64,000 nt of DNA from Methylobacterium sp. (GTDB lineage: Bacteria > Pseudomonadota > Alphaproteobacteria > Rhizobiales > Beijerinckiaceae): the NCBI GenBank assembly GCA_002928875.1, contig PERO01000016.1, positions 9,519-73,518 of the forward strand, in the 5' to 3' direction. Below, piece after piece: positions 25,972 through 55,036 of the stretch; position 1 is the first letter of the stretch, and the number at the start of each line of letters is the position of its first letter. Position numbers and translations under genes: made by a program. Below the pieces are notes generated by a model that ran no database searches, had not been told where the DNA came from, and saw only the letters and a list, made by a program, of their open reading frames with translations.

Positions 25972-26047
25972 TCCTCGATAGCTCAGTTGGTAGAGCGTTC
26001 GACTGTTAATCGAATGGTCGCTGGTTCGAGTCCAGCTCGAGGAGCCA
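25972..26047 (+). tRNA. tRNA-Asn (GTT), probable integration site
   Basis: 76-nt cloverleaf TCCTCGA...CTGTTAA...GTTCGAGTC...TCGAGGAGCCA. Confidence 0.97.
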
Positions 26048-33000: not shown

Positions 33001-33084
33001 GACCAACGGCTGCCCAGCAAAGCAATCGACGACCGATTCCACGGCATTGGTTTGATAGGGCTGGACCTTGAATTTCAGCTTCAT
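30046..33084 (-). CDS. res: Type III restriction endonuclease subunit Res
   Basis: [34 protein letters not shown]; C-terminal YNPDW...ETKG nuclease motif. Confidence 0.95.
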
Positions 33085-33094
33085 GCCCGCCCCC

Positions 33095-34990: not shown

Positions 34991-35000
34991 CCTTGTCCTC

Positions 35001-38600: not shown

Positions 38601-38962
38601 TTCGACCGGAACCTGGCCTTCTTGCGAATCCAGTCGGCGCATTCGCGCGCCACGGCCCTTTGCGTCAGCTTGTTGCGGAGCTGGATTTCAAACTCCGTTC
38701 CGTAAAGGCCACTCTCCCGCCGCGCTTTTGGGATGAAGAACTCTCGCCGTTCCTTGCGCAGGCGGTCCGTGACCTCCATCGGCACAAACGTCGGTGCGGT
38801 AAAAATGAACTGAAGGCTTTCGATCTTCGAAAGCTCAGACTTGAGCGCCTCGAAGGCGTAAATCGAGAAGCACGACGCAGCGATCTTCAGTCGGGCGCCA
38901 CGCCCGACTGTCGCTTTCAGATCGTCACCGAACAGCTGCGAGGTGTTATCGATGATCTTCAT
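35690..38962 (-). CDS. SNF2-related SF2 helicase with extended N-terminal domain
   Basis: LADSVGLGKT, IDESHNFRN, LSATP, SEGQNLQD, QRFGRIDR motifs. Confidence 0.93.
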   Translation of the reverse strand: MKIIDNTSQLFGDDLKATVGRGARLKIAASCFSIYAFEALKSELSKIESLQFIFTAPTFVPMEVTDRLRKERREFFIPKARRESGLYGTEFEIQLRNKLTQRAVARECADWIRKKARFRSNTTKAPMQQFLHMASDDGGIAYMPIGGFTAVDLGYQKGDAVSNFVTRFDDPNHTQMYLQLFDQIWSDPEKLDDVTAAICDHIESVYHENSPERIYFLMLYNIFQDFLEDIDEDVLPNDLTGYRDSVVWNKLFNYQKDAATGIINKLETYNGCILADSVGLGKTFTALAVIKYYELRNRAVLVLCPKKLADNWRNYNTNLTTNIFAKDRFNYDVLCHTDLSRTSGESFGIPLNRVNWGNYDLVVIDESHNFRNNDVFKDRETRYQKLMNKVIRAGVKTKVLMLSATPVNNRFTDLRNQLALAYEGQSEALSQNLKAQTSIEEIFRRAQKAFNAWTILPPDERTAASILKALDFDFFELLDAVTIARSRKHIETFYDTKDIGKFPQRCKPLSFHCPITQRPDVMGLNDIFTQLSVLKLAVYAPISYILPSRLRKYEEIYDTQVEGGRGKLRQADRERSLQALMTTNLLKRLESSVEAFRLTLRSLSGNISRALGAIRDFERSGGTQSVSDFLADEELLDAEDDDLAGLGDITVGKKVQISLADMDLPSWKHDLEADLALIEDLIASMDKVGPDDDAKLQHLMQVLGQKVSEPLNPGNRKVLIFTAFADTANYLYANLAPFAQQLGLQTGKVTGSGAPKTTLRKSYDFQGVLTLFSPRSKEKAVVLPNEPGELDILIGTDCISEGQNLQDCDYLVNYDIHWNPVRIIQRFGRIDRIGSPNTQIQLVNYWPDITLDEYINLKERVENRMVIADVSATGDDNVLTAKSSDIAYRKDQLRRLQEEVIELEDVKTGISITDLGLNDFRMDLLNYVKEHGELDNLPNGMHAVVPAQPDLCLRPGAIFALKNIHDSVNINQQNRLHPYYLVYIGNDGEIVADHTEVKRLLDLIRTSCKGRPEPIQEVCRAFNERTQDGRKMDRYSELLSSAIRSMIEVKEEKDIDSLFSGGRTTALLHTIAGLNDFELIAFVVIEGADE

Positions 38963-39803
38963 CGACACCCCGTTCATTCAGAAGCACGATTTGCTGGTCT
39001 TGCGGGCGACGAGCGGCCGGTGGCGTATCGAGACCCAATCGCCTCAGAGCATAGTAGCGCAGCGCCTTTCGAACACGAATCTGTGCGCGCCCACTTCGCA
39101 TGCCATAGTCGAGGGCGATTATCCGCTTCTGGCTTTCGGAAAGGTCTGGGTGCGGCCCTATTTCCAGTGTGACGAATTCGTTCCAGTCGGTGTCATGCTC
39201 AGCCGATACCTCGCTCGGTCGAAGTGATCTGGTCTCAATGATTCTGGACAGCAGGAAATCCTTGAACGTGCGATCGACCTCACAAAAGGCACGGGTGTGC
39301 CAGCGGTATCCGTCAAAGCCGATCGCATGCGGCGCAATCCATCGCCACCTGGGATCATCGCTAGATAGCGATTGATACTTTACTTCCACTGCCTCTTTTT
39401 GACGGATCGCGGCGACGATTGTTCGCAATGTTTCGGTGTTCACCCCCCGGGCCGGGACAGGCGGCCCGCCGTAGGGCGGAAGATGCGCTATCCAAGACTC
39501 GGATGAGTCCAAGATACCGTCGGCAACGGATCGAAGCTGGTTGAGGTATTGCTCGGCTTCAGGCTTCAGGAAAATTGGCGAGAACTGTGGACTCGCAACA
39601 TAGCGCTTAGCACTCTTGTCGTAGACGGCGTTGTGTGGCGCTCGCTCCTGATAGAGCGTCAAATCCTTCGACGCTTGAGGCACTGACACGTCGAACACAT
39701 CAATGATGTCGGAGCGGTTCACGCCCCCGTCCCAGAAGAGGCGGAACTCGATGAATTCGAGCCGGCGCTCTACGCCCCATTTCAGCGCCACAGCGGCATC
39801 CAT
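38946..39803 (-). CDS. WYL-domain transcriptional regulator (CapW/BrxR-like)
   Basis: N-terminal wHTH ERRLEFIEFRLFWDGGVNRSD..SKDL..Y; WYL region YQSLS..PHAI..GYRWHTRAFC..DFLLSRI. Confidence 0.9.
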   Translation of the reverse strand: MDAAVALKWGVERRLEFIEFRLFWDGGVNRSDIIDVFDVSVPQASKDLTLYQERAPHNAVYDKSAKRYVASPQFSPIFLKPEAEQYLNQLRSVADGILDSSESWIAHLPPYGGPPVPARGVNTETLRTIVAAIRQKEAVEVKYQSLSSDDPRWRWIAPHAIGFDGYRWHTRAFCEVDRTFKDFLLSRIIETRSLRPSEVSAEHDTDWNEFVTLEIGPHPDLSESQKRIIALDYGMRSGRAQIRVRKALRYYALRRLGLDTPPAARRPQDQQIVLLNERGVDEDHR

Positions 39804-39976
39804 CGCTCCACCTCCGTTTGCCGATACGCATAAAAGCTATATGGACATATCGACGCGACCCGTGTAATTACTATTCATATCGGGGGCATCGGTCAAGGTG
39901 GATTGCGGCGCGTCAAAGAGCGCGCCGCCTTCATCCACCAGAAGCGATGCAACGGGCTTTAGGGCGGGGGCAACCA
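39804..39976. promoter_or_regulatory. AT-rich divergent promoter region between the two defence operons
   Basis: 173-bp gap; catatcg repeated at 39846 and 39876; ccgata (39821) is inverted to tatcgg (39878). Confidence 0.5.
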
Positions 39977-42637
39977 ATGCAACCAAAAGAACGGCGCACG
40001 ATCGTCGCCCACGGACGATTAGCGATGCGTGAAGTGCGGCTCGCCGCCGCACGTGAGCGCCGTCATGGCCTCCAGATCATAACCTTCGAGGGGCTCGCCG
40101 CGCGCCTGGCCGGCGGCTTGTCGCGTCCGGTCGACGACGAGACATTGCGCACCACCATCCAGCGGATGCTGCCGGACGTCGAGCTAGGCGAGCTTGATGG
40201 CCTCAAGGCTCTGCCAGGCATGGTGGGAGCCGCCACTGAAACGCTCCGCAAGGCATGGCGCGCGGGCGTCGACTTGCAGGCGCGTGCCAGCGAGCACCCA
40301 CGCATTGCATCTCTCGCCAGCCTTGAAGAAGCAGTGCTTGCCGCCTTGCCGCCGGCCATGATGCGTCCGGTCGATTTGGTCGCGGCAGCCTTGCAGCGGC
40401 TGGACCATGTCGACGCCCTCTTCGGGCCGATCGAGATCGTCGGAATAACCGAGCTGTCGCCGTGCTGGCGGCCGCTTCTGCACGCTATCGCTCAGCACGT
40501 GCCGGTTACCTGGAGCGCCGGTCCGCGGTCGACGCCTGCCTGGCTCGACGGAGCTGTTATCGACGTGACGCGGAGTGATCCGCACACGCCAGAGATTGTC
40601 ACCGTCAGCGCCTCGACCGCCTATCACGAAGCCATCGAGGCGCTCCGTTGGGCACGGCAGCTCGTCGCGTCCGGCGCGGCTGATCCCGCCGAGATCGCCA
40701 TCGCATCGGTCACGCCGGCTGATTACGACGACCATTTCCTGGCTTTGCGGGCCGACGCCAATCTCGACCTTCACTTTGTGCATGGCGTCAAGATCACGGC
40801 CTGTAGGGAAGGTCAGGCAGCCGCCGCGCTCGCGGACATCCTTGTGCGCGGGCTTTGTCAAACGCGGATGCGGCGTCTGTCGTCCCTGCTGGCCGCTTAT
40901 CCCGGCGCATTTCAGGCTTTGCCACCGGACTGGACGCGCGTCCTGCCGGCAGATGCTCCCCTGGCGTCGCCCCAAGCCTGGACCCACCTGCTCGACCGCC
41001 TGACCGCTGCCGACTGGCCCGACGAAATCGATCATGGTCCGGCGTTGCGCGAGATTATCGGTCTGCTGTCGCAGGGCGTAGCTGCGGCCGAAGCAGTTGG
41101 TGAAGCACTGCTGAATGGCAGGACCTTGGCCATCTGGCGCAAGGCGCTCCTTGCCGGCCCGGCCGCCTCGCTTGATCTTACCCTGGAGACGTTGAAGCAG
41201 GACGACGGTCTGGATGCCTGCGTCTCGGTCGCATGGATGCCTGCAAGCGCGTTGGCGGCATCGCCGCGCCGCTTCGTTCGACTCCTCGGCCTCAATTCCT
41301 CGCGTTGGCCGCGCGGCATTTCGGAAGATCGCCTCCTCTCCGATCACATCATCCCCACGGCTGAGCTCGACCCGCTCCCTGTCGGCGCGGCCGACCGGCG
41401 GGATTTCGCAACAATCCTCGCGACCAGCGAGCGCCAGGTTGTCCTGTCGCGGGCGCGACGGGACAGCGATGGCCGCCTCCTCGGCCGCAGCACCCTCCTG
41501 CAGGGCCAGCCCGATGAGGTTTATCTCCGGCGCAACCGGGTGCCGGATCACGCCTTCAGCGAAACCGACCGGCTGACCGCCCGGCCGCAGGAATTCCGCG
41601 CGCTCCCGCAAGCCGTTTCGGCGGCCGCCTGCTGGCGCAACTGGCTGCGGGAGGAGATTACTCCCCATGACGGACTCGTTCGTGCCGACCATCCGGTGAT
41701 CCAGGCCATCCTGGCGCGCACCCAATCGGCCAGCTCCCTTCGCAAGCTCTTGCGCAATCCGCTCGGCTTCGTCTGGCACTACGGCCTGCGCTGGCGCGCG
41801 CCCGAAAGCGGCGACGACCCGCTCGTTCTCGATGCGCTGGCAATGGGCGATCTCGTTCACCAGATTCTGGATCGGGCTCTCCGCACACTCGAAGCCAATG
41901 GCGGACTGGCCGCTGCAACGGGGCAACAGATTGCCAGCGCCGTCGATGGCGCTGCCGGTGAGGTTGCCGAAATCTGGGAAACCGAACGTCCTGTGCCGCC
42001 GCGCGTAATCTGGCGGCGCACCCTCGACGAGGCGCGGGAGTTGAGCCGGCGAGCCCTCGCTTTTGGCGACGAGCGCCTGCCTGATGCCCGCGCCTTCGGC
42101 GAGGTCCCTTTCGGAGGCGCCGAGCCCAAGACCAATGACGCGCTGCCCTGGGACGCCACCGCCAGCGTCGGAATTCCTGGCACTGACTTCCGGATCGCCG
42201 GCTACATCGATCGGCTTGATGTCTCCGCCGGCGGCCGCCGCGCTCTTGTGCGTGACTACAAGACCGGCCGTAAGCCCAAGGACACCATCATTCTCGATGG
42301 CGGCAAGGAGCTGCAGCGCTGTCTCTATGCCTTCGCCGTGAAGGCGATGCTCGGCGACGATGTCGCCATCAGCGCCTCCCTGCTCTTTCCCCGCGATGAG
42401 GTTGATCTGCGGCTCGAGGATCCCGAAGGCACTTTAGCGGACGTCGCCGGCTATCTGTCCGCCGCGCACGCCAGTCTCCTTGCCGGCGGTGCCGTACTCG
42501 GGGCCGACACCGGCGGGACATATGACGACCTCGCCTTCGCATTGCCGGCTAACGCCGGCGCCACCTATTGCAAGCGCAAGATTGCCGCCGCCACCGAGCG
42601 CCTCGGGGACGCCGCGCAGGTCTGGGAGGCTCAGTAA
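39977..42637 (+). CDS. AddB-like PD-(D/E)XK nuclease
   Basis: SASSL..LLRNP, GDLVHQIL, EVPFG, GYIDRLD..VRDYKTG, Q..LY motifs. No Walker A visible. Confidence 0.85.
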   Translation: MQPKERRTIVAHGRLAMREVRLAAARERRHGLQIITFEGLAARLAGGLSRPVDDETLRTTIQRMLPDVELGELDGLKALPGMVGAATETLRKAWRAGVDLQARASEHPRIASLASLEEAVLAALPPAMMRPVDLVAAALQRLDHVDALFGPIEIVGITELSPCWRPLLHAIAQHVPVTWSAGPRSTPAWLDGAVIDVTRSDPHTPEIVTVSASTAYHEAIEALRWARQLVASGAADPAEIAIASVTPADYDDHFLALRADANLDLHFVHGVKITACREGQAAAALADILVRGLCQTRMRRLSSLLAAYPGAFQALPPDWTRVLPADAPLASPQAWTHLLDRLTAADWPDEIDHGPALREIIGLLSQGVAAAEAVGEALLNGRTLAIWRKALLAGPAASLDLTLETLKQDDGLDACVSVAWMPASALAASPRRFVRLLGLNSSRWPRGISEDRLLSDHIIPTAELDPLPVGAADRRDFATILATSERQVVLSRARRDSDGRLLGRSTLLQGQPDEVYLRRNRVPDHAFSETDRLTARPQEFRALPQAVSAAACWRNWLREEITPHDGLVRADHPVIQAILARTQSASSLRKLLRNPLGFVWHYGLRWRAPESGDDPLVLDALAMGDLVHQILDRALRTLEANGGLAAATGQQIASAVDGAAGEVAEIWETERPVPPRVIWRRTLDEARELSRRALAFGDERLPDARAFGEVPFGGAEPKTNDALPWDATASVGIPGTDFRIAGYIDRLDVSAGGRRALVRDYKTGRKPKDTIILDGGKELQRCLYAFAVKAMLGDDVAISASLLFPRDEVDLRLEDPEGTLADVAGYLSAAHASLLAGGAVLGADTGGTYDDLAFALPANAGATYCKRKIAAATERLGDAAQVWEAQ

Positions 42638-45600
42638 TGAATGCCCCGCTGAAACCGCTCGCCGATGATGTGGCGCGGCGCACTGTGATCGCGGTTCACG
42701 ACCGCTCGTTCTTGGTCGAAGCCGGTGCGGGTTCCGGCAAGACCGCCGTCATGGCCGGTCGCATCGCCCTGATGCTGGCCGAAGGCATTGCGCCAAGGAC
42801 GATCGCCGCGGTGACGTTCACCGAGCTCGCGGCCAGCGAGCTTCTCATCCGTGTCCGCGACTTCGTTGGCGAGTTGGTGGCAGGTCGCATTCCCGCCGAG
42901 CTTCGGGTTGCCTTGCCCTATGGCTTGTCCGAAGACCAACGCCGCAATCTCGCGGCTAACAGCGCGGCGATCGATGAAATCACCTGCTCGACCATCCACG
43001 GCTTCTGTCAACGCCTGATCAAGCCTTATCCCGTCGAGGCGGACATCGATCCCGGGGCGGTCGTGATGGACCGCGACCAGGCGGACCTCGCCTTTGCGGA
43101 AATCGTTGAAATCTGGCTTCGGGAGGAACTTGCCGACGATGCTGGCGGACTGCTTGCCGAAATGGTCCTGCAGGATCCGGGCGAGACCGTCGGGCTGATC
43201 CACAAGATTCTCACGCATCTCCGCAGCCGCCGCACGCTGGCTGTTGAGGCGCCCGAAGCGCTGGAACCGCTCATCGGAGCCGTCCGGCAGACAGCAGACG
43301 GCTTCGCATCTTGGCTGCACACGGCCGGAGTCGATGAGCCGGAGACCGCTGACATCGCGACGCGATTCTTGGAAATGGCCGAAGCCATTGAGGCAATCTC
43401 GCCGGCGGAGCCGGCCGATCTGGTGCGGCTGTTGCTCGCGCGCGCCCATCCCGATCTCTGCACGGCCGGAGGAAGCTTTCGCGCCTACAAGAAGAAAGGC
43501 AAGTGGTGCGAAGCCGCCAAACACGCGGGCCTCGCCAAGGCGGATGGCGATCGCTTGAACGCTGGCGCGGAAGGCCACTACAAAGCCTGTTGCGAAGCAT
43601 GGACCGTACTGTCGCAGGCGGCCGCGTCGCGCATCCTCGCCGAATTCGTCCAGCTAGTGCAGCCGGTCATGGATCGCTTCCGCGACTACAAGCGCTCGGC
43701 TGCGCTTCTCGATTTCGATGACCTCATCTTCGCCGCACGCGCCCTGTTGCGCGACCATGGAGCGGTGCGCCGTGCGCTGGCCGCGCGCTTTGCGCATGTC
43801 CTCGTCGATGAGTTTCAGGACACCGACCCTTTGCAGACCGAAATCTTCTGGCGACTGTGCGGCGACCCGCAGGCTGGAGCAGACCGCGACGATTGGACCA
43901 CGTTCCAAATCCGGCCGGGAGCGCTGTTCCTGGTGGGCGACCCCAAACAGGCGATCTACCGCTTTCGTGGCGCCGACGTGGCGGCCTACATCCAGGCGCG
44001 GGAAACCTTCCTTGCGCAGGCACCCGACAGCGTCGTGTCGATCTCGACCAATTTTCGGTCCTGCGAACCAATCCTGAATTATGTGAACGATCGCTTCGAA
44101 CTCCTGCTGTCGGCCGAGAACGGCCAGCCGGGGTTCACCGCTCTTGATGCGTTCCATCCTGAACGGAACGACGGACTGTGCGTCGCGGCCCTCGACATTG
44201 CCGTGGCCGATGCCGACGGCAAGGCCTCGGCCGAACGCCAGCGCGACGGCGAAGCCGAGGCTGTCGCCGACATGTGCGCGCGCCTGATCGGCAGCGAGGC
44301 CATTCTCGATCGCAAAACCGGTGAGCGCCGCGCCTGCCGGCCTGGTGACATCGCTCTTCTCGCGCCGACGGGAAGCGATCTGTGGCGCTATGAAGAAGCG
44401 CTGGAGCGGCGCGGCATTCCAGTTGCGACTCAGGCCGGCAAGGGACTGTTCCGGCGCCAAGAGATCCAGGACCTCATCGCGCTCACGCGAGTGCTTGCCG
44501 ACCGCCGCGACACGCTCGCGCTGGGCGCGCTGCTTCGTGGTCCACTGGTCGGGCTGACTGAGGAAGAATTGCTGGACATTGTCTGGGCGCTCCCGCGCTC
44601 CGAAGATGCGCCCGACGCCTTGCCGCGACTGGACCTCCACGTGGCTCCGGAAACGATCACTCATCCACATGCGCGCGACATCATCGAGAAACTTCAGGCG
44701 CTGCGGCTGAGGATGAACGCCACGACGCCGCACGACCTGCTGTCGCAGGCCATCGACGTGCTGCGCGTGCGGCCGATCCTCCTTCATCGGCATCGCGACC
44801 AGGCCGAGCGTGCCCTCGCCAATGTCGATCTCTATCTTAGCCTCAGCCGGGCGTATGCGGTCCGCGGCCTGCGTGCCTTCGCGGAGGCGATGACGGCCGC
44901 GTGGACCGACGAGGCCCGCGCCGTCGAAGGCCGCCCCGATGCTCAGGAGGAGGCGGTTGCGCTCTACACCATGCATGCCGCCAAAGGGTTGGAATGGCCG
45001 ATCGTCGTCCCCGTCAACACAATGACGCAGATCATGGCACCGGAGAGCGCGATCACCGACCGTGCCACCGGCCGCTTCTTTTGTCCGGTGTTCGGCGTGA
45101 AGCCGACGGGTTACGAGGCGGCGCGCGATGCAGAGAAGGCCGAGCTCGACCGCGAGCGCATCCGTCTCTGGTATGTCGCCGCTACGCGGGCGCGCGAGCT
45201 GCTGGTTCTGCCGAGGCTCGATGTCGCTGCGAAGGGATCGGCCTGGATTTCCCTTCTGGACCTGTCGCTGGCGGAACTGCCGGCGCTCGATCTTAGCCAT
45301 CTGCCGCCCGAGGTCGGGTCCGATGGGGCTGGCGCGCAGAATCCCCAGACCCGCGAAATCTTCGCGGCCGAAGCGGAGATGATCGCAGAGCGCCGCCAGC
45401 GCATTGTCTGGCTCGCCCCCAGCCGCGACGAGAATGCCACCGGACCGGCGTTGCATGCCGAGCTACCAGAGATCCTGGTGACCGATGTCGACGATGCGCC
45501 TGTTGAGGACGGCATCGTCCAGACGATCCAAGGTGGTCGCGAGCGCGGCGTCATTCTGCACAAGCTCATCGAAGAGGTCCTCACTGGCGAAACAGCGGAG

Positions 45601-46041
45601 ACGGAGCCCGCTCTCATTGCCCGCGCCGAAGCCTTGATCCGCGCCATTGGCCAGCCGGTGGCCCCTGACCCTGCTCAGGGACTTGCAGCGGCCGAACTCG
45701 CGGCTTGTGTTCTTCGCGCTCTCGCTTTGCCGGAGATAGTCGCTCTGCGGCCCGGTCTCTTGCCGGAATTTCCAGTCTACGCCTCCATCTTGACCGAAGA
45801 GCAGGAGGAAGCAACGGCCGGGATCGCCGATGCGATTGCCTTTGGCCCCGATGGCGCGCCTCAGGTGATCGTCGATTGGAAGAGCGACGTCGCGCCCGCG
45901 CCCGAGACGCTCGACCACTATCGCACTCAAGTGCGCGCCTATTTGGATATGACCCAAGCCGAACGCGGGCTGATCGTGCTGGTGACCTCCGGCGCAATCA
46001 TCCCCGTCGGACGCACGAACCCGGCCGTCGCGGTTGCCTGA
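42637..46041 (+). CDS. AddA-like UvrD helicase with C-terminal RecB-type nuclease
   Basis: AGAGSGKT, STIHGFC, VDEFQD, GDPKQAIYRFRGAD, TMHAAKGLE, YVAATRAR; GIAD...VDWKSD. TAATG stop/start overlap with the upstream gene. Confidence 0.92.
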   Translation: MNAPLKPLADDVARRTVIAVHDRSFLVEAGAGSGKTAVMAGRIALMLAEGIAPRTIAAVTFTELAASELLIRVRDFVGELVAGRIPAELRVALPYGLSEDQRRNLAANSAAIDEITCSTIHGFCQRLIKPYPVEADIDPGAVVMDRDQADLAFAEIVEIWLREELADDAGGLLAEMVLQDPGETVGLIHKILTHLRSRRTLAVEAPEALEPLIGAVRQTADGFASWLHTAGVDEPETADIATRFLEMAEAIEAISPAEPADLVRLLLARAHPDLCTAGGSFRAYKKKGKWCEAAKHAGLAKADGDRLNAGAEGHYKACCEAWTVLSQAAASRILAEFVQLVQPVMDRFRDYKRSAALLDFDDLIFAARALLRDHGAVRRALAARFAHVLVDEFQDTDPLQTEIFWRLCGDPQAGADRDDWTTFQIRPGALFLVGDPKQAIYRFRGADVAAYIQARETFLAQAPDSVVSISTNFRSCEPILNYVNDRFELLLSAENGQPGFTALDAFHPERNDGLCVAALDIAVADADGKASAERQRDGEAEAVADMCARLIGSEAILDRKTGERRACRPGDIALLAPTGSDLWRYEEALERRGIPVATQAGKGLFRRQEIQDLIALTRVLADRRDTLALGALLRGPLVGLTEEELLDIVWALPRSEDAPDALPRLDLHVAPETITHPHARDIIEKLQALRLRMNATTPHDLLSQAIDVLRVRPILLHRHRDQAERALANVDLYLSLSRAYAVRGLRAFAEAMTAAWTDEARAVEGRPDAQEEAVALYTMHAAKGLEWPIVVPVNTMTQIMAPESAITDRATGRFFCPVFGVKPTGYEAARDAEKAELDRERIRLWYVAATRARELLVLPRLDVAAKGSAWISLLDLSLAELPALDLSHLPPEVGSDGAGAQNPQTREIFAAEAEMIAERRQRIVWLAPSRDENATGPALHAELPEILVTDVDDAPVEDGIVQTIQGGRERGVILHKLIEEVLTGETAETEPALIARAEALIRAIGQPVAPDPAQGLAAAELAACVLRALALPEIVALRPGLLPEFPVYASILTEEQEEATAGIADAIAFGPDGAPQVIVDWKSDVAPAPETLDHYRTQVRAYLDMTQAERGLIVLVTSGAIIPVGRTNPAVAVA

Positions 46042-46059
46042 AAGCGGGACGCGACGCGG

Positions 46060-47238
46060 ATGTCATCTCTTGCCTGGATCGATTTCGATGAAGCCGAGCG
46101 CCAGCGCGCGCAGCGGATCATGGCTCTCTTTCAGGAGCGCGAAAGCCGCGACGAGCTGGGGCTGGGCGCCATCCGGGATTCGATCGCGGACCACCTTTTT
46201 CCGGGGACGAGCACGATCCAGACCCGCTTGCGGTATATGCTCTTCATCCCCTGGCTGTTCCGCACGCTGGAAGGTCGGGACGTTCCCGAAAGCCAGCTTC
46301 GCACCGAGGCGCGCGCCCTGGAAATTCGGCTAGCCGACGCGCTGAAGGCTGGCGGAGAGTCGAATGGCATCATCGGCCGCGACGCCGGTCCAAGGCTGCA
46401 GCGGCTGCCCAGCTCAGTCTATTGGGCCGGGCTCGGCGCCTGGGGCATCCGCCTCTTCCCGGGCTCGATCGATAGCCTTTTCATCTCTCTGCGTGGCCTG
46501 AAGCGGCCGCGCGTCTCGTCGGACAGCGAGGACGCCGCGGCAGGTTCACGGGCGGCAGCTATCTGGAATCCAGCCTTGCCACAGGCGCCCAACGGCCTGC
46601 TCGACTGCGCCGCCTTCAGCCTGACCGCGGACGAAGCGCAGTTCATCATCGATCGCCTGGTTGCGGCCCAACCGGCGGCGCTACTGACCATGCTGGCGCG
46701 TGACGGTATCGATGCGGAATGCGACCATATCTGGACCCATCCACATCTGGCATCCTTTCCGGCGGACGCGCGCCGTCTGGTCCGCCACGGCGAGATATTC
46801 TCGCATGTGATGCATGGGGCGGCGCTCCTCTACAATCTCGCGCTCAGCGAATTGCGTGGTCGTGACGATTGGGTCGCGGACTATCGCGAGCGCATTGCGG
46901 CCTGGGCCGCCGAGCTGGATCTTTCCGTCGTTCGCAACTGGTCCCTCGACGATTTCTGGGACGCCGTCGAACATCCCGCCCACAGCGTCCGGCCCGCGGC
47001 CAAGCGCTTCGTGGCGCAGTGGCTCGAACTCGTGGTCGATGGCACCACGCAGATTGCTTCCGCGCCTGCGGCCCGACAACTCGTGGAAGAGCGGGAACGC
47101 CGATTGAAAACCAGTCAATCGCGCTACGCCAACCACGCCGTCCGCGATCGCTGGACTGGTGCTTCCGGCGTCGACCGCCTGAACTTTCGCTGGAACCAGG
47201 CGAGATCGCATTTGAGGGACCTGGCTCATGCTGAATAG
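46060..47238 (+). CDS. DUF6361-like protein (possible Azaca component)
   Basis: WIDF...RDELGLGAIRD..LFPGTSTIQTRLRY..FIPW and PSSVYW patterns, recognised from memory. Confidence 0.7.
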   Translation: MSSLAWIDFDEAERQRAQRIMALFQERESRDELGLGAIRDSIADHLFPGTSTIQTRLRYMLFIPWLFRTLEGRDVPESQLRTEARALEIRLADALKAGGESNGIIGRDAGPRLQRLPSSVYWAGLGAWGIRLFPGSIDSLFISLRGLKRPRVSSDSEDAAAGSRAAAIWNPALPQAPNGLLDCAAFSLTADEAQFIIDRLVAAQPAALLTMLARDGIDAECDHIWTHPHLASFPADARRLVRHGEIFSHVMHGAALLYNLALSELRGRDDWVADYRERIAAWAAELDLSVVRNWSLDDFWDAVEHPAHSVRPAAKRFVAQWLELVVDGTTQIASAPAARQLVEERERRLKTSQSRYANHAVRDRWTGASGVDRLNFRWNQARSHLRDLAHAE

Positions 47239-49084
47239 GCGCAGCCTCGATCCCGAACAGCGAACCCTCTACGGCGCCAACCTCCAGCCGCCGGCCGGCT
47301 ATATCTTCGACGCCGCCGTCGCCACCACGTTCTCGCTCGACTTCGAGACGGCACTCGCGGTGCCGGTCAGCCTGGCGCTGTTTGCCGCCGAGAATCGCGA
47401 GGACATTCTGACTCATCCCTTGGCGCTGCTCGAAGGAGCCGAGCGCATCGCCGGCCGTCTCCTTGTCTTCACTGACGCCGGACATATCCAGGCGCACACG
47501 CGACCGCATTCTCGCCTGTGCTCGTTGCTAGAACGTATCATCGTGGAGGTCGCGGCGCCCAGCGGCGGCGCTTTCCATCCCAAGATATGGGCGCTCCGCT
47601 TCAAGCCGGTACGCTCCGACGAACCGACTCGCCTTCGCCTGCTGGTGCTGTCGCGCAATCTCACCCGCGATCGCTCGTGGGATATCGCGTTGACGCTCGA
47701 CGGCGTGGTCGCGCGACGGCCGCAGGCCCTCAATCGACCTTTGGCCGATCTCATTCGCCGCCTGCCGTACTTTGCGACGGCCGGTCTGCCCGAGGGGGCT
47801 CGCGACCTCACCGAGGGAATTGCCGAGGACCTGCGCCGCACCGATTGGAGCTTGCCCGAACCCTTTCAAAGCCTCGCGTTCGCCGTGAATGGTCTGGGAG
47901 GCAAGCAATGGCGTCCCGAACCCTGCGCCCGGCTCGGCGTGATCTCACCGTTCTGCGACGACACGGCACTGTCAATGCTCGCAGATCTCGCCGGCGCCGA
48001 GAAACCCGTCCTGATCGGCCGCTCGGATGAACTCGCGCTGGTCCCTGCTGCAACGCTCGGCCGTTTCGCCCGGGTGGCGGTGATGGACGAGATGGCGGCC
48101 ACCGAGGATGGCGAGGAAGTAGACGCGACCGCTCTCCAGGGGTTGCACGCCAAGGCCTTCATCACCGAGATGGGCTGGGACACAACGATCACGGTCGGAT
48201 CCGGTAACGCCACCCGCCCCGCTCTTTTGTCGGGAAGCAATATCGAGGTCTTCGCCACGCTCACCGGCAAGCGCTCACGTGTCGGCAGCATCGAGGAGAT
48301 TCTCGGCGAAAAGGGGTTTGGTCGGCTCACACGTCCCTTCGTGCCGAACGAACTGGTCGCCGTCGATTCAGCCCTGCGGGCAGCCGAGGCGCGGTTGGAT
48401 GCCGCTCGCCGCGACATTTGTTGCAGCGGCTTGAAGCTTCGTTGCGAGCGCACCCAATCAGCCGATGACGACGGTCTGCTCTGGCGTGTCTGGCTGATCC
48501 CTTCCACACCGCTCCCGCTCGCCGGCATCGGTGCCTTGCGCATATGGCCCATCACGCGCGGCGAAGGCCATGGCCAAGATGCTCTTGAGAGGCTGCGGCT
48601 GGGGCAGCCGATTGATCTCGGCGCAATGCCGCTGATCGATCTTACACGCTTCCTCGCTTTCCATCTGGTCGACGGGAATGGCGAAGTCTCCCTTCTGTTC
48701 AGCACCGGCCTCCTTCTGGAAGGCCTGCCTCCGGAACGGCACGCCGCAATCCTGCGCTGGGTGATCGACAGCAAGGATGCCTTTTTCCGCTATTTGCGGC
48801 TGCTGCTCTCCGAACTTGGCGACCCGTTCGCCGCCGCGCTCGCCGCACAAGAGGGCTCCGGCCACGGCGCATGGCGCATGGCCGCCGATGACGCGCCGCT
48901 CCTCGAGGAGATGGTGCGCGCCTTCTGCCGGGGCGGCGATCAGCTCCGCGCTATTGAACGGCTGATCACCCGATTGGAGACCGTCGAGCCAGGCGAAGCC
49001 GACCCCATCCCGGCCGAGTTCCGCACCCTTTGGGAGACATTCCGCGTCGCGCTCAAAGCTCAAGGGGGCGTGCATGTCCAGTGA
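47228..49084 (+). CDS. Phospholipase D superfamily protein, probable nuclease, with two HxK motifs
   Basis: TTFSLD, FHPKIW...SRNLT and LHAKAF...GSGNAT. Confidence 0.85.
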   Translation: MLNRRSLDPEQRTLYGANLQPPAGYIFDAAVATTFSLDFETALAVPVSLALFAAENREDILTHPLALLEGAERIAGRLLVFTDAGHIQAHTRPHSRLCSLLERIIVEVAAPSGGAFHPKIWALRFKPVRSDEPTRLRLLVLSRNLTRDRSWDIALTLDGVVARRPQALNRPLADLIRRLPYFATAGLPEGARDLTEGIAEDLRRTDWSLPEPFQSLAFAVNGLGGKQWRPEPCARLGVISPFCDDTALSMLADLAGAEKPVLIGRSDELALVPAATLGRFARVAVMDEMAATEDGEEVDATALQGLHAKAFITEMGWDTTITVGSGNATRPALLSGSNIEVFATLTGKRSRVGSIEEILGEKGFGRLTRPFVPNELVAVDSALRAAEARLDAARRDICCSGLKLRCERTQSADDDGLLWRVWLIPSTPLPLAGIGALRIWPITRGEGHGQDALERLRLGQPIDLGAMPLIDLTRFLAFHLVDGNGEVSLLFSTGLLLEGLPPERHAAILRWVIDSKDAFFRYLRLLLSELGDPFAAALAAQEGSGHGAWRMAADDAPLLEEMVRAFCRGGDQLRAIERLITRLETVEPGEADPIPAEFRTLWETFRVALKAQGGVHVQ

Positions 49085-52000
49085 ACGGTTCCGCGCTGCG
49101 CCGGCCTTGGAGCCCCTGAAGGCGTTCCAGCGCCGCACCGTCGACTACGTTTTCGACCGGCTCTACGGCCCGGATGATCCTGTCCACCAGTTCCTGGTGG
49201 CCGACGAGGTGGGGCTGGGCAAAACCATGGTCGCCCGCGGCGTTATCGCCCGAATGATCGAGCATCTGTGGGACAGCGTCGAGCGGATCGACATCCTCTA
49301 CATCTGCTCGAATCAGGCGATCGCGGCACAAAACCTAAACCGGCTGAACGTCCTCGGCCGGCGGGAACTAGCCCTGCCGACCCGAATGACGCTGATACCG
49401 CTACAACTGCGGGACCAGGAGGGACTCGACGCCAACAAAGTCAACTTTATCAGCCTCACTCCGGGCACCACATTCGATCTCCGATCGGCGACCGGCGTAA
49501 CGCAAGAGCGCGCGCTGTTGCTGCACCTGCTGAAGGATCTCGTCTCGCGTCCGCGCGGGCTCCACAACCTACTGCAGGTCACCGCCGGCGTTGACGGCTG
49601 GACCTGGGCCGTCGACAGCTTGGATTTGCGCGGCGTCGACACGCGCATCATCGAACGCTTCCGCCGCGATGTGCAGGCTGATCGCGATCTCTTCCAGGAG
49701 TTGGAGCGCGTTTGCGAGATGTTCCCGCGCCGGCGGGACGCGTACCCGTGGGAAATGACCCAACCGCGCAACAGCCTCGTGGCAAGGTTGCGCGCGAAGC
49801 TGTCTCACGCCTGCGTGGATGCGCTTCAGCCTGATCTGATCATCATGGACGAGTTTCAGCGCTTCCGCGACCTGCTGCACGGCGACAGCGACGCCGCGAT
49901 CCTGGCGCGCGAACTGTTCGACTATTCAGGCGGCGACGGTCACGCCGCCAGAACCTTGCTCCTGTCCGCGACGCCCTATCGCATGCTGACCCTTGCCGGC
50001 GACGAGCCCGACGAAGGCGATCACTATCAGGACTTCCTGGAGACGTTGAGCTTTCTCTACGGCCGCGACAGGGGGCCGGAGGTAGCCAAGACGCTGGCGC
50101 GCGAGATGCGCGCCTTCCGCGGGTTCCTGCACGGCTTGCCCGCGTCACATGCCGCCGCAGTCGAGGCGCGCAAGACGGTCGAGCAACGTCTACGCCGGGT
50201 AATTGCGCGCACCGAGCGCGTCGCCAGCACTGTCGAGCGCGATTCCATGGTGGGCGAGCCGCCCGTGGCCGTCTCGGTAGCGCCGGCCGATCTCGCGCAG
50301 GCGGCCGCGGTCTCGAATGTGGCGCGTGCGCTCGATGCCCCCGAGATCATCGAGTATTGGAAATCAGCGCCATACCTACTGAACTTCATGCGACACTACA
50401 GCTTGAAGCGCCTGTTGGAAGAGCGAACGAACACGCCATCCGCAGCGCTTCGCAACGCGATCCTGGCAGCGCGGCCTGCCATGCTCGATCACGACTCGCT
50501 CGACGCTTACGCTCCGCTTGATCCAGCCAACGGTCGCATGCGTGCGATCATGGATGACATATTCGGCGCTGGCCTTGAACAGAACCTCTGGATCCCGGCA
50601 GCCATGCCCTACTATGGCGCCCAGAGATCGCAGCCGCCGCTGACCAAGGCACTCATCTTCTCCTCTTGGTCCATGGTGCCCGACGCCATCGCTGCGCTCC
50701 TGTCCTATGAGGCGGAGCGGCGCATGGGCGTCGGCGAATCCGGCCGGCGCTATTTCGAGCATCATCGCCTGCGGCCGTTGCAGTTTCGGCAGGACCAGGG
50801 CCGGTTGGCCGGACTGCGGACGCTCCTGCTGATCTATCCGTCCCCCAAATTGGCCGAGATGGCCGACCCGCTTTCGATCTTCGCCGAGCGAAACGAGCTA
50901 CGGTCGCAGGAAGCAATGCGCGCGGCCATTGCCGACCGTCTCGAGCCGGCGCTTGACGCGCTCAGGCAAGTCGCGGCGCAGGATGGCGGGACCGCCGTTA
51001 ACGAATGGGCCGCCCCTGCCGTGATTGACGAGCTGCTGGGCTCGGGTGCTGGCGCTTGGCTTTCGGCGCCGGGAGGTATGGCCGCATTGGCCAGTGAGGA
51101 GGGATTTCGCGAGCACGTCGCAGAATTGAGCAGCGCCGCGAAGCAACGTGACTTCGGTGCTCTCCCCGACGATCTTCGCGACCTGCTCGTTGACGTGGCG
51201 CTGGGCAGTCCGGCGGTGTGCGCGCTGCGCGCCCTGCGCAGGATCGCGCCGGAGCTTGCTTGGGACCATCCACGTTTGCTCAGCGCCGCCGCCGAGGTCG
51301 CTTGGGCGTTCCGCACGCTGTTCAACCAGCACGACGCCATCGCCCTCCTCCGGCGCGGCGCCGACGATCGCTATTGGCATCGCGTTCTGACCTATGGCGT
51401 CGACCAGAACCTCCAAGCCGTGCTGGATGAATACGCGCACTATCTTGTCGATGCTGAAGGCCTGGGTTCTCGGCCGCCAGCAGAGCGGGCCGTCGGCGTC
51501 GCCCGGGCGATGGCGACAGCCTTGTCCATTCGGCCCTCGCAGATCGATGTCGATGACGTCCACGTCGAAGGCGATGCCCTCACGATCGGGAAATTCCAGA
51601 TGCGCGGCCGTTTCGCGATGCGCCTGGCCGATTATCGGGACGAGGAAGGCGCCGTTGCGCGCCTCGGCGGCGTCAGGGACGCGTTCAATTCCCCGTTCCG
51701 GCCCTTCGTCCTCGCTACCACCTCCATTGGCCAGGAGGGGTTGGATTTCCACCCGTATTGCTACCGCGTCTACCACTGGAATCTTCCGGGCAATCCGGTC
51801 GACCTGGAACAGCGCGAAGGGCGCGTTCACCGCTTCAAGGGACATGCCGTGCGCCTCAATCTGGCGGAACGCCAGGTCTCCGCGGTCCGGGGCAATGGCC
51901 ATACGCCGGATGATCCTTGGAGGCAGATGTTCGACCAGGCCAGATCCGAAGCCCCCGTCGACACAGACCTCATCCCCTATTGGATCTATGAGGGCTCCGT

Positions 52001-52226
52001 CCGCGTCGAACGGCGCGTACCGATGCTGCCTTTCAGCCGCGAGGTCACCCGCCTAGCGTGGCTCAAACGCAGCCTTACAGTCTACCGTCTAGCCTTCGGC
52101 CAGCCGCGGCAGGACGACCTGCTGGATTACCTGCAGACATTGGTCGGAGCTGGGATGAATACCGTCGATCTGGCCGATCTGCAGATCCGACTCGAGCCGG
52201 GGATTCTCGATGATCCAGCGCGATAG
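49074..52226 (+). CDS. SF2 (SNF2-like) helicase
   Basis: VADEVGLGKT, MDEFQ, LSATP, IGQEGLDFH, EQREGRVHR motifs. Confidence 0.9.
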   Translation: MSSERFRAAPALEPLKAFQRRTVDYVFDRLYGPDDPVHQFLVADEVGLGKTMVARGVIARMIEHLWDSVERIDILYICSNQAIAAQNLNRLNVLGRRELALPTRMTLIPLQLRDQEGLDANKVNFISLTPGTTFDLRSATGVTQERALLLHLLKDLVSRPRGLHNLLQVTAGVDGWTWAVDSLDLRGVDTRIIERFRRDVQADRDLFQELERVCEMFPRRRDAYPWEMTQPRNSLVARLRAKLSHACVDALQPDLIIMDEFQRFRDLLHGDSDAAILARELFDYSGGDGHAARTLLLSATPYRMLTLAGDEPDEGDHYQDFLETLSFLYGRDRGPEVAKTLAREMRAFRGFLHGLPASHAAAVEARKTVEQRLRRVIARTERVASTVERDSMVGEPPVAVSVAPADLAQAAAVSNVARALDAPEIIEYWKSAPYLLNFMRHYSLKRLLEERTNTPSAALRNAILAARPAMLDHDSLDAYAPLDPANGRMRAIMDDIFGAGLEQNLWIPAAMPYYGAQRSQPPLTKALIFSSWSMVPDAIAALLSYEAERRMGVGESGRRYFEHHRLRPLQFRQDQGRLAGLRTLLLIYPSPKLAEMADPLSIFAERNELRSQEAMRAAIADRLEPALDALRQVAAQDGGTAVNEWAAPAVIDELLGSGAGAWLSAPGGMAALASEEGFREHVAELSSAAKQRDFGALPDDLRDLLVDVALGSPAVCALRALRRIAPELAWDHPRLLSAAAEVAWAFRTLFNQHDAIALLRRGADDRYWHRVLTYGVDQNLQAVLDEYAHYLVDAEGLGSRPPAERAVGVARAMATALSIRPSQIDVDDVHVEGDALTIGKFQMRGRFAMRLADYRDEEGAVARLGGVRDAFNSPFRPFVLATTSIGQEGLDFHPYCYRVYHWNLPGNPVDLEQREGRVHRFKGHAVRLNLAERQVSAVRGNGHTPDDPWRQMFDQARSEAPVDTDLIPYWIYEGSVRVERRVPMLPFSREVTRLAWLKRSLTVYRLAFGQPRQDDLLDYLQTLVGAGMNTVDLADLQIRLEPGILDDPAR

Positions 52227-52348: not shown

Positions 52349-55036
52349 ATGGCCAGCTTGAAAGATGATCAGAAACCGCTTGAAGACGTAGCCCGCGAGA
52401 GCCTCGGCACCTTCGCAGCAATTGCCGACGCCGCCAGGAACCATCTGGCTTCCGCTACCAAAGCCAGCCTCTCAGTACCGATCGCCGACAACACCTGGAC
52501 GTCCCCGGAACCTGACAGGAATAGGCGCCGCATCGATCAGGAAAACGCAGACGGCTACCGGCTGCTTTCACTCGAACCCGCCATCGCACGCGTGGCGGTT
52601 GTCGATGAAGAGGGCTCCAAAACGACATACTACATCTGTCGCGCAGCGCCCGTCTCCGTCGCGGACAAACGGATAAAGCTGGCAAGCTATCGTTCCCCTG
52701 TAGGCCGACTGGCGGCACTTCCCGTCGGAGCGGATCATACCTTGCGTCGCGACGGTCACACGATTTCGGTCGAAGTTCTGGAATATGCGCGGTTTCAGCC
52801 GAAATTCGCCGACGGCGAATGGGATGCTCGAAATTCGATCGTCGAGGGAGACGCCTACGGTCCCCTGACGATTGAGTCGCTTCGCAGGCTCCTGGAACGG
52901 GGTGAGCCGGACATCGACGCTACGTTGCTCGACAACCTGCTGGGAGAAGAAAGTGAGGCAGCGAATGTCCGCGAGGGGCTGCGCCGCAGTGTCATTACGA
53001 AGATGGACCTGCGAGACCAGCCCATCCTCGACCAATACCAGGACGACATCTTCCGCCTGCCTTTGAACAGCCGTCTTCTGATTCTGGGCGCACCAGGCAC
53101 CGGAAAGACAACCACATTGATCCGCCGCCTCGGTCAGAAGCTCGACATTGCGTTTCTCGACGAGGACGAGCAGCGGGCCATCGGTGCAGGATCGCGCGAC
53201 GGCCAGACTAACCATGCCCGGGATTGGGTCATGTTCACGCCTACCGAGTTGCTGAAACTCTATGTCAAGGAAGCCTTCAACCGCGAAGGAATCCCTGCTC
53301 CTGACGATCGCATCAGCACCTGGGCCGATTTTCGCGACGACCTCGCCCGGAACGAATTCTCCATTCTCCGATCAGCATCCAACAGCAGCTCCTATGTGCT
53401 GAAAGAAGCCGCGCGCACCCTCAAAGCCGAGTCGGAAAACGACGCGATCGGCTGGTTCAGTGATTTCGACCAATGGCAGAAAGCCGCCTATTGGGATGAG
53501 ATGCGAGCCTCGGCCAGGAGCTTGAGCGAGCATGCTGCGCCCGATGTTGCACGCGTTGGCGCGAGGCTTCTCGCCACGATCGGCACAGATGAAGCGGAGG
53601 CGCCACATATTTTCCTCTCGTTGCTGCCGATAGCCGACGAAATTCGCGCAATGGTGGAAACCCGAAAGGACGCCACGGATGCGAAGATCCGTGGAGCGCT
53701 GAATTTGCAGGTCAACAAGGACCGTCGTTTCCTCGACGACTTCGGGAGCTTTGTCGAAGGGTTGTCCGACCTTATCGATGAGGCAGACGATCAAGATAGC
53801 GAGGATGAAGACGACGCCGGCCCGCCGCGCGTCGGCAGGGCTGCCGCCCTAAACCACTACATGCGCGTGGTGCGCTCGCAGGCTCGCGCTCGCGCCCGAA
53901 AACGAACGGTAGCTAAAGCCAGCCGAACGGGCCGCATCATCGAATGGCTCGGCGACAGGACACTCCCTGATCCCGACCTGCAGGCAATCGGCGAAAGCCT
54001 TCTGATCCAGTCCGCACTGCGATGGTTCGTGAACCCCGTACGAAGATATGTGGACGGCGTGCCTCAGCGCTATCGTCGCTTTCGCCGCGCTCGTCAGGCG
54101 GAGGCCCTGTGGTATCGACCTGAAGGCTTCAGTCCTACGGACATTCATCCCCTCGAAGTCGACATCATCCTTCTCGCCATGATGCGCGGCACGGACGACC
54201 TGGTGAGACGTGCCCGTCGTCTTGTCGACACTGAAAACCCGGCGCGATCGATTCTGGAACGATTGAACCACCTGTACCGAACGCAGGTGCTCGTCGATGA
54301 GGCTACCGATTTCTCGCCCATTCAGCTTTCCTGTATGGCGACGCTGGCGCGCCCCGGAACGCGGTCATTCTTTGCCTGTGGTGACTTCAACCAGCGTGTC
54401 ACAAGCTGGGGCACTCGCTCAGTCGAGCAAATGCGGTGGGTGATCCCTGATATCGAGACCCGCTCGATCTCGGTTGCCTATCGACAAAGCCGTCGGCTGC
54501 ACGAGCTTGCGCGACAATTGGTACGTCTCGCCGGCAACGGCGCCGCCGAAGTCGTGCTTCCGGACTACGCCGAAAACGAAGGCGTTCCACCGGTTCTCGC
54601 GCTGAACATGAATGACACGTCAAAGACTGCAGCGTGGCTGGCTCAGCGAGTTCTCGAAATCGAAAACTTCGTTGGAGAACTGCCGTCCATTGCGGTCCTT
54701 GTGAACAGCGAAGCTGATGTTCGCGCCGTGGCGGATGCGCTCGGTGATGCTCTTGTCGCGCACAATATCCGCGTGATCCCGTGTCCTGATGGCCAAGTCC
54801 GAGGGCGCGAGAACGCCGTGCGAGTGTTCAATGTCCAGCACATCAAGGGGCTGGAATTCGAAGCCGTCTTCTTTGTCGGCGTCGATACGCTTGCAGAGAA
54901 TCAACCCGATCTGTTCGACAAGTATCTCTATGTCGGTGCAACGCGTGCAGCCACATACCTGGGAATGACATGCGAGCATTCGCTGCCCGCCCGAATGGTG
55001 ACCTTGCGTGAACAATTCGAGGAGGCGTGGCGGTAG
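52349..55036 (+). CDS. SF1 helicase-like ATPase (HelD/UvrD-like)
   Basis: Q..IFR...LILGAPGTGKT, VDEATD, GDFNQ, YRQS, IKGLEFE, YVGATRA motifs. Confidence 0.85.
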   Translation: MASLKDDQKPLEDVARESLGTFAAIADAARNHLASATKASLSVPIADNTWTSPEPDRNRRRIDQENADGYRLLSLEPAIARVAVVDEEGSKTTYYICRAAPVSVADKRIKLASYRSPVGRLAALPVGADHTLRRDGHTISVEVLEYARFQPKFADGEWDARNSIVEGDAYGPLTIESLRRLLERGEPDIDATLLDNLLGEESEAANVREGLRRSVITKMDLRDQPILDQYQDDIFRLPLNSRLLILGAPGTGKTTTLIRRLGQKLDIAFLDEDEQRAIGAGSRDGQTNHARDWVMFTPTELLKLYVKEAFNREGIPAPDDRISTWADFRDDLARNEFSILRSASNSSSYVLKEAARTLKAESENDAIGWFSDFDQWQKAAYWDEMRASARSLSEHAAPDVARVGARLLATIGTDEAEAPHIFLSLLPIADEIRAMVETRKDATDAKIRGALNLQVNKDRRFLDDFGSFVEGLSDLIDEADDQDSEDEDDAGPPRVGRAAALNHYMRVVRSQARARARKRTVAKASRTGRIIEWLGDRTLPDPDLQAIGESLLIQSALRWFVNPVRRYVDGVPQRYRRFRRARQAEALWYRPEGFSPTDIHPLEVDIILLAMMRGTDDLVRRARRLVDTENPARSILERLNHLYRTQVLVDEATDFSPIQLSCMATLARPGTRSFFACGDFNQRVTSWGTRSVEQMRWVIPDIETRSISVAYRQSRRLHELARQLVRLAGNGAAEVVLPDYAENEGVPPVLALNMNDTSKTAAWLAQRVLEIENFVGELPSIAVLVNSEADVRAVADALGDALVAHNIRVIPCPDGQVRGRENAVRVFNVQHIKGLEFEAVFFVGVDTLAENQPDLFDKYLYVGATRAATYLGMTCEHSLPARMVTLREQFEEAWR

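Follow-up and report, generated by a model that had tools for sequence, protein, structure and literature searches.

An AddAB-like gene pair upstream of an Azaca operon on a genomic island of Methylobacterium sp.

The locus and its genomic island

The window, a stretch of 64,000 nucleotides of Methylobacterium sp. (contig PERO01000016.1), contains five same-strand open reading frames at 39977-52226 (+), which were confirmed from its sequence. Gene 1 (39977..42637) encodes an AddB-like subunit of 886 aa with an inactivated SF1 helicase body and a C-terminal RecB-type PD-(D/E)xK nuclease, and gene 2 (42637..46041) an AddA-like SF1A helicase of 1134 aa, also with a C-terminal RecB-type nuclease. 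They are followed by the three genes of an Azaca system, i.e., zacA (gene 3, 46060..47238, 392 aa), zacB (gene 4, 47228..49084, 618 aa), which encodes a PLD-family nuclease with two HxK motifs, and zacC (gene 5, 49074..52226, 1050 aa), which encodes an SF2 helicase/ATPase. Genes 1 and 2 overlap by 1 bp (TAATG), 18 bp separate gene 2 from zacA, and zacA/zacB as well as zacB/zacC overlap by 11 bp, in exact agreement with the coupled junctions listed in the preliminary description. The five genes share their GC content (0.65-0.67) and GC3 (0.75-0.78), and their neighbours differ. The next gene downstream, gene 6 (52349..55036, +), encodes a HelD/UvrD-like SF1 ATPase with UvrD domains, starts 122 bp after zacC and has a GC content of 0.595, compared to 0.65 for genes 1-5. 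It was rejected as a sixth member, since it is missing after ZacC in two relatives that are 93-99% identical (L105, L182), directly follows gene 2 in two other loci (L049, L061) and differs in GC content; it is variable cargo outside Azaca.

On the other side, a gene for a CapW/BrxR-like WYL regulator (38946..39803, -; Pfam WYL) is divergent from gene 1. It heads a WYL-SNF2-DUF4391-Mod-Res operon, the left arm of the locus (30046..38977, -), which encodes an SNF2 helicase, a DUF4391 protein and type III Mod and Res, and which was characterized as variable cargo by domain and PADLOC searches and by related loci. The preliminary description had placed genes 1-5 back-to-back with a type III restriction-modification operon; this operon indeed adjoins, but the immediate divergent gene is the WYL regulator at its head. 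The 173 bp spacer between the two arms (39804..39976) presumably contains a bidirectional promoter and an operator, a role that is suggested by the CapW architecture (PMC11662680), and a promoter scan of the spacer found no sigma-70 consensus site. Genes 1-5 lie inside a genuine island that is integrated at a tRNA-Asn gene. Its left end (25972..27682), placed by synteny and annotation, comprises the tRNA-Asn gene (25972-26047), at which the synteny with congeners ends, and a gene for a large serine recombinase; the island also carries ArdC and ParB. The claim of a mobile island was therefore borne out.

Genes 3-5 form a canonical Azaca system, with the three families adjacent and in order (PADLOC PDLC03828-30). 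The PADLOC matches cover the full lengths of ZacA (1e-133, profile positions 3-393 of 396; also Pfam DUF6361), ZacB (7e-171, 2-584 of 586), and ZacC (1145 bits, 5-1016 of 1019), confirming a resemblance that had been noted in the preliminary description, while genes 1 and 2 received no call of their own. The two PLD motifs of ZacB, H117-x-K119 and H307-x-K309, are intact as described and 100% conserved in 94 homologues; the textbook x4-D is absent from both throughout this set. In ZacC, the Walker A motif, DEFQ, and motif VI are invariant in 74 homologues. For other ZacABC operons it has been reported that the proteins form a complex, that T4 DNA is cleaved in an ATP-dependent manner, and that the three genes alone confer defence (bioRxiv 10.1101/2025.07.10.664194). 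The locus described here thus shares families, order, full-length profiles, and intact PLD and SF2 motifs with known Azaca systems, but in contrast to the described system of three self-sufficient genes it is preceded by an AddAB-like pair and a WYL regulator.

A non-housekeeping AddAB-like pair

Gene 1 contains a Pfam PDDEXK_1 domain at residues 584-806, and it is predicted to adopt the AddB fold: the top structural match of its AlphaFold model (pLDDT 92.7) is AddB of B. subtilis (4ceh_B, E 3e-25). The nuclease motifs IDRLD (744) and DYKTG (760) are present, and E709, D745, K762, Q780, and Y784 are invariant in 69 aligned relatives. In contrast to B. subtilis-type AddB, gene 1 contains neither a Walker A motif nor a conserved four-Cys Fe-S set, as had been noticed before. 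However, a Walker A motif is also missing from the housekeeping AddB of the host, and therefore its absence was rejected as a distinguishing mark of gene 1. Gene 1 is matched by none of the PADLOC 2.0 profiles at E 0.01. Gene 2 has the Pfam domains UvrD-helicase, UvrD_C, and PDDEXK_1. The nuclease motifs IAD (1063) and DWKSD (1080) are present, and its helicase and nuclease motifs are 96-100% conserved in 103 relatives, so that both nucleases have the intact motif sets that were claimed for them. By fold and motifs, the combination of an inactive-helicase-plus-nuclease subunit with an active-type SF1A helicase-nuclease places genes 1 and 2 in the AddAB fold class. The pair also shares the addB-addA order and the coupled translation with known AddAB enzymes (B. 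subtilis, PDB 3U4Q/4CEH; alphaproteobacterial TIGR02784/TIGR02786 families).

Compared to these known AddAB enzymes, the pair is shorter, the Fe-S cysteines are missing, and the scores are far below the family cut-offs. Gene 2 matches TIGR02784 along its full length with only 284 bits (cut-off 861), and gene 1 is not matched by TIGR02786, whereas searches with the same two models found the true addAB copies, with 950 and 768 bits, on another contig (C2) of the same genome. In the best-matching segment, gene 2 shares about 28% identity with the AddA of the host, and its family forms a clade apart from 23 housekeeping AddA proteins (SH-aLRT 100). The pair is present in 2 of 23 members of the host genus, so it is no single core copy, and it is patchily distributed (8 of 400 sampled Alphaproteobacteria). 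A housekeeping role was thus rejected, as the preliminary description had argued from the gene context; genes 1 and 2 are a mobile AddB/AddA-like pair, a second copy beside the genome's own addAB.

One explanation for a second copy is that the pair works on its own as an effector against phages or plasmids, with Azaca as a mere co-resident; it would then be a Chi-blind AddAB and destroy any free DNA end. The strict conservation of the motor and both nucleases, the many plasmids on which the pair is found alone, and the fact that nuclease-helicase pairs are a common design in defence would fit. So would the region around the Chi-binding residue F68 of B. subtilis, which is only partly kept: in a weak alignment F68 corresponds to F36, while G38 and A41 stand in place of R70 and W73, which we take to be Chi contacts. 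However, Chi sites and the residues that bind them vary between species, and therefore Chi-blindness is not deducible from the region around F68. In addition, the host already has AddAB and the pair is absent from the PADLOC 2.0 systems, and we regard this explanation as unlikely.

Distribution and cargo of the pair

The loci from GTDB and metagenomes represent the 80 best matches, with a bias towards close relatives. Clustering of the pair family at 50% identity (E up to 1e-30) yields 418 clusters, of which many are partial. Genes 1 and 2 lie next to each other in all loci of sufficient length, down to 30% identity. They diverge together (Spearman 0.97), as do ZacA and ZacB (0.94), while the correlation between the two modules is lower (0.60-0.71).

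In 67 informative close GTDB loci, the gene directly after gene 2 encodes ZacA in 14 cases, an SF2 helicase-nuclease of 1113 aa in 13, SIR2-HerA in two, gene 6 in two, and various proteins in the remainder. Azaca-type operons are found within about 4 kb behind the pair in 25 of the 67 loci, in several lineages. ZacA is present in about 1% of the sampled Alphaproteobacteria, compared to 21% of the close loci directly after the pair; hence the five-gene order is found much more often than expected by chance, and Azaca-type operons are more enriched behind the pair than a neutral hotspot would need. Of 41 Azaca loci with at least 66% identity to the ZacA described here, 16 are immediately preceded by the pair and another 12 by the SF2 helicase-nuclease that usually comes after the pair. 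The gaps between pair and Azaca are mostly 4-22 bp. In Rhizobium etli, a distant Azaca (40-45% identical) stands behind an 80%-identical pair, and therefore the association arose more than once. Both pair-bearing members of the host genus have Azaca behind the pair.

These observations, together with the GC and GC3 values common to genes 1-5, would suit a genuine five-gene subtype of Azaca with the pair as a dedicated partner for degradation of the DNA that ZacB has cut, which is essentially what had been proposed at first. However, the co-occurrence at larger distances speaks against this proposal: just 1 of 32 distant Azaca loci has the pair in front of it, and Azaca accompanies none of 39 plasmid pairs with less than 62% identity. 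On each of the two trees, at least 11-12 changes in the link between pair and Azaca are counted, the ZacA tree being built without a second Azaca clade. Pairs that are 93-99% identical carry other cargo (the SF2 helicase-nuclease, SIR2-HerA), gene-1 proteins of 93-95% identity are followed by Azaca or by different cargo, and the near-identical loci L050 and L055 also differ. Conversely, Azaca occurs without the pair among close relatives, e.g., in Ralstonia (75%) and in three further loci (L117, L123, L126). Tight junctions were rejected as proof of a dedicated partnership because the pair is joined equally tightly, at a 2-bp junction, to Shango. The idea of an AddAB dedicated to Azaca in a fixed, extended system was thus not upheld, as the pair is mostly found without Azaca, Azaca mostly without the pair, and three genes suffice elsewhere; co-occurrence and co-divergence of the modules are not obligate, and a five-gene subtype seems very improbable. 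The best reading is that Azaca is the commonest, non-obligate partner of the pair and that the five-gene order is facultative.

The cargo is variable on either side of the pair (the counts on the gene-1 side were read by hand). The pair shares operons or islands with CBASS, a ThiF/multiubiquitin operon, Gabija, BREX, and Hma, and in related loci Hma, BREX, or other systems take the place of the left arm. Type III restriction-modification was rejected as a fixed partner since the same left arm occurs in only 2 of 80 GTDB loci (L009, L040). This variability, the nearly exclusive location on plasmids or islands (39 of 60 pair-bearing plasmids are conjugative), and copies next to plasmid replication genes (repABC) or ordinary genes could also mean that the pair serves the mobile element, either as a spare recombination or repair enzyme that guards element or host against damage by the element's own nucleases or for cassette exchange, with its conserved sequence also as a homology arm for the swapping of cargo. 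Against such a service stand the coupling of the pair to defence genes on a presumed common transcript, its position behind a defence-type WYL regulator, and the occurrence of only one copy in 2.9 million viral contigs; moreover, a homology arm would need no conserved catalytic residues. We consider a service to the element distinctly unlikely.

Two separable modules and their possible cooperation

The explanation that we prefer, and to which we give about an even chance, is that the locus consists of two separable modules, the pair being a general, island-encoded helper in end processing and Azaca the cargo in a swappable slot. Genes 1 and 2 and zacABC would be expressed from one WYL-controlled transcript. 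The first module would be a mobile AddAB-type heterodimer that loads onto dsDNA ends; the SF1A motor of gene 2 would translocate, and the two RecB-type nucleases would cut both strands and free ssDNA fragments. As the constant centre of a hotspot for defence genes that is carried by integrative elements and plasmids, the pair would serve whichever nuclease systems adjoin and finish DNA that they have already cut. The second module is an ordinary Azaca system, whose ZacABC complex would cut phage DNA in an ATP-dependent manner by itself. Since Azaca occupies the slot behind the pair, a cut-then-degrade cooperation is likely to be possible without an obligate five-protein system, and this mechanism is plausible as something that the pair does for its neighbours in general, not for Azaca in particular. 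The copies next to replication or ordinary genes and the enrichment of Azaca-type operons behind the pair weigh against the reading as a general helper.

The ssDNA released by the pair may, in addition, de-repress the adjacent WYL regulator. It has been described that RecBCD products activate the WYL repressor CapW (PMC11662680) and that RecBCD is the shared processing hub in the synergy of Druantia and Zorya (PMC13192584). An extended and more tentative proposal, which we regard as possible though doubtful, is that the pair is a processing hub and signal amplifier, which would degrade DNA cut by its neighbours independently of the host AddAB, which phages may inhibit, and whose ssDNA would release the WYL repressor, resulting in positive feedback on both arms. 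In 48 of 80 loci, a WYL homologue lies beside the pair in divergent orientation; it is the most constant neighbour of the pair. However, about 40% of the close loci have no divergent WYL gene and the co-divergence of WYL and gene 1 is loose (0.51), and therefore the feedback step is not universal.

Host RecBCD and AddAB are known to finish cut phage DNA, to make the ssDNA that WYL proteins sense, and to underlie defence synergy. A mobile, private AddAB with which defence operons begin would, if true, make this dependence directly testable, and the pair would add a widespread accessory family missed by PADLOC 2.0. The five-gene unit matters less, as a frequent combination of the known Azaca with an accessory pair. 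In line with the earlier statement that no account of the five-gene unit was known, a literature search, thin on subscription papers, found neither a description of nor an experiment on the AddAB-like pair or the five-gene set; a paper on BREX diversity does not mention UvrD, RecB, or AddAB, and a 2022 bioRxiv text on the 'expanding arsenal' does not name Azaca. While Azaca is already known, the pair is uncatalogued in PADLOC 2.0.

Two known arrangements are related. UvrD-Cas4-like fusions are ancillary proteins with an SF1 helicase and a PF12705 nuclease in defence contexts, also beside type III restriction-modification and WYL genes, and they are proposed to aid several systems (PMC5704561). 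This family is a single fusion protein, with no mention of an AddB-like partner in the text consulted, which sets it apart by description. In CapW/BrxR islands, as here, a divergent WYL gene separates two arms whose defence cargo varies (PMC9122601, PMC11662680). The locus analysed here differs in that one arm starts with the AddAB-like pair as its constant first cistron, an arrangement of which we found no description; in Desulfosarcina, a WYL homologue of 39% identity heads an operon of CBASS plus the pair.

Five genes on a mobile island

The five open reading frames were confirmed in the window, with junctions consisting of a TAATG overlap, an 18-bp gap and two 11-bp overlaps, and the motifs cited in the preliminary description are present in them. 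Genes 3-5 (46060-47238, 47228-49084 and 49074-52226), which the preliminary description had likened to Azaca, match the PADLOC profiles of ZacA, ZacB and ZacC over their entire length. Their catalytic residues do not vary among 74-94 homologues, and by sequence these genes are assigned to Azaca. The three-protein Azaca complex is required for cleavage of T4 DNA and is sufficient without other proteins, and Azaca operons protect against T4 over a million-fold (bioRxiv 10.1101/2025.07.10.664194).

Genes 1 (39977-42637) and 2 (42637-46041) are a mobile AddAB-like pair. The top structural match of the predicted gene-1 model (pLDDT 92.7) is Bacillus subtilis AddB (E 3e-25), followed by AdnA and RecC, and gene 2 aligns with AddA over its full length, with a score of one third of the family cut-off. 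The motor and both nuclease sites are kept in relatives as low as about 30% identity. That the pair is not the housekeeping addAB has held up: the latter sits on another contig of the genome (C2), gene 2 forms its own clade, separate from 23 housekeeping AddA proteins, and the pair is present in 2 of 23 genus members, 15 congeners having the housekeeping AddA only. Gene 1 stays unassigned in PADLOC, which has no model for its protein, and literature searches found no description of the pair. Azaca is a known system, and the resources searched contain no catalogue entry for the accessory pair. In locus L214 (ENA ERZ27276907), a 39% relative of the pair has ordinary genes as neighbours (aminotransferase, TamB); the family may be chromosomal in some lineages, and is perhaps the main AddAB there.

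The mobile-island setting was borne out by a tRNA-Asn gene (25972-26047) with a large serine recombinase at the left end, and by congener synteny, which ends at this tRNA gene; ArdC and ParB are also aboard. A type III restriction-modification operon had been placed back-to-back with gene 1. Mod and Res are indeed encoded in the divergent operon (WYL-SNF2-DUF4391-Mod-Res), but the gene adjoining gene 1 is that of the WYL regulator. An IS110 transposase (55534-56733) and the anti-restriction gene ardC (56881-57840) share the island with the restriction systems, and a RES-domain gene with its upstream partner (28193-29459) is probably a toxin-antitoxin pair.

Association of the pair with Azaca

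In GTDB, 12 of the 80 closest loci break off too early and 1 is a duplicate, which leaves 67 informative ones. The gene directly behind gene 2 is zacA in 14 of these (21%), a gene for a 1113-aa SF2 helicase-nuclease (SF2 gene) in 13, SIR2-HerA in 2 and gene 6 likewise in 2. Canonical Azaca follows 3 of the 13 SF2 genes, a second, distant DUF6361 clade 5, and a co-directional DUF6361 gene of some kind lies within about 4 kb of the pair in 25 of the 67 loci. On plasmids, zacA is directly behind the pair in 10 of 60 pair records, all ten with an identity to gene 1 of 65% or more, and in 0 of the 39 pairs that are <62% identical. None of five informative distant pair representatives (30-50% identity) has Azaca; one is followed by BREX. 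Seen from the other side, metagenome loci with a ZacA at least 66% identical to that of the window (n = 41) have the pair directly upstream in 16 cases, the SF2 gene in 12 and neither in 13, and loci below 66% have the pair directly upstream in 1 of 32. Evenly drawn Alphaproteobacteria (n = 400) contain the pair in 8 and ZacA in 4 cases, and gene 2 stands directly upstream in 2 of the 9 ZacA loci that the class and phylum draws yielded. Therefore, the link is strongly enriched, yet within each module it is confined to a single lineage.

A congener (genome G795, L229/L230) has the five-gene order as well, from a different lineage: its pair is 68-70% and its Azaca 78-84% identical, and its left arm carries Hma. 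Decayed or rearranged versions also occur (L024, L042, L225): the pair is followed by a ZacA fragment, a distant Azaca lies in convergent orientation beside a gene 2 with a frameshift, or a ZacC end stands alone.

A swappable slot behind the pair

Genes 1-5 are alike in GC and GC3 and both flanks differ, which favours long co-residence in this lineage and speaks for a dedicated five-gene Azaca subtype, as the preliminary description had proposed. On the gene-1 tree the label "Azaca behind the pair" has to change 12 times, and on the ZacA tree "pair upstream" has to change 11 times; well-supported branches force 6 and 8 of these changes, respectively, in quick trees with SH-aLRT support only and with gains and losses indistinguishable. 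Gene-1 proteins that are 93-95% identical have Azaca, the SF2 gene or SIR2-HerA as cargo, and the divergence correlation is 0.97 and 0.94 within modules versus 0.60-0.71 between modules. An 80%-identical pair in Rhizobium etli is accompanied by an Azaca that shares no more than 40-45% identity with the Azaca of its sisters; this mismatch shows independent placement, which fits a hotspot as well as selection for the combination. The tight junctions are little proof of partnership, because other genes join the pair equally tightly: on a Sulfitobacter plasmid Shango ends 2 bp upstream of gene 1, and the SF2 gene starts 4-23 bp behind gene 2. The slot behind the pair is swappable, and with exchangeable cargo and a link limited to one lineage per module, a pair dedicated to Azaca is improbable and the least likely of the readings considered. 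The window adds a measured, lineage-limited link between the pair and Azaca and evidence of an exchangeable slot.

The SF2 gene (e.g., L045:16062-19403; also L019, L030, L084, L094, L221 and others), about as common behind gene 2 as Azaca, encodes a ResIII/DEAD helicase whose C-terminal tail is PD-(D/E)xK-like, has no PADLOC match at 1e-15, and is a candidate uncatalogued defence gene. In the distant clade, the DUF6361, PLD and helicase proteins have about 398, 601 and 1010 aa, with ZacC about 29% identical, and its loci lie either close to the pair or behind a WYL gene of their own (L045, L050, L053, L054, L058, L051, L218, L223, L226). Gene 6 (52349-55036), a co-directional gene of lower GC behind zacC for an 895-aa HelD/UvrD-like SF1 ATPase, is absent from this position in 93-99% identical relatives; Sphingobium and Novosphingobium have homologues directly behind the pair in BREX islands (L049, L061), and gene 6 is a candidate stand-alone defence gene.

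Possible role of the pair

The constant features are the pair itself and the divergent WYL gene, which 48 of the 80 loci have. The cargo to the left of this gene is Hma, HmaA plus a Tiamat-like gene, BREX, type III restriction-modification or other systems, and at other sites the pair is inside or beside CBASS, ThiF/multiubiquitin (Bil-like) operons or Gabija. Because these neighbours are so different, the most economical role would be that of a general helper which finishes DNA opened by other systems, possibly when phage proteins block the host enzyme; this reading has an even chance of being correct. By homology to AddAB, the products of genes 1 and 2 would act as a heterodimer, loading on DNA ends, unwinding the DNA and cleaving its two strands. 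RecBCD serves as the shared hub in Druantia-Zorya synergy (PMC13192584). The WYL repressor CapW is activated by ssDNA products of RecBCD (PMC11662680), and therefore island induction could also be amplified by a private AddAB-like enzyme that a WYL repressor controls. That the pair is instead a stand-alone effector seems unlikely, and a function in element maintenance or repair about equally so.

A possible Hma variant, seen in L075:1141-8870 and some ten loci like it, has a Tiamat-like sacsin-domain protein (1409 aa) behind the HmaA helicase instead of HmaB and HmaC. An IrrE/M78 peptidase-UvrD-PD-(D/E)xK fusion (1133 aa; L071:3954-7355, L008, L086, L012, L037, L056) is followed by multiubiquitin and ThiF (Bil-like) genes, all directly upstream of the pair.
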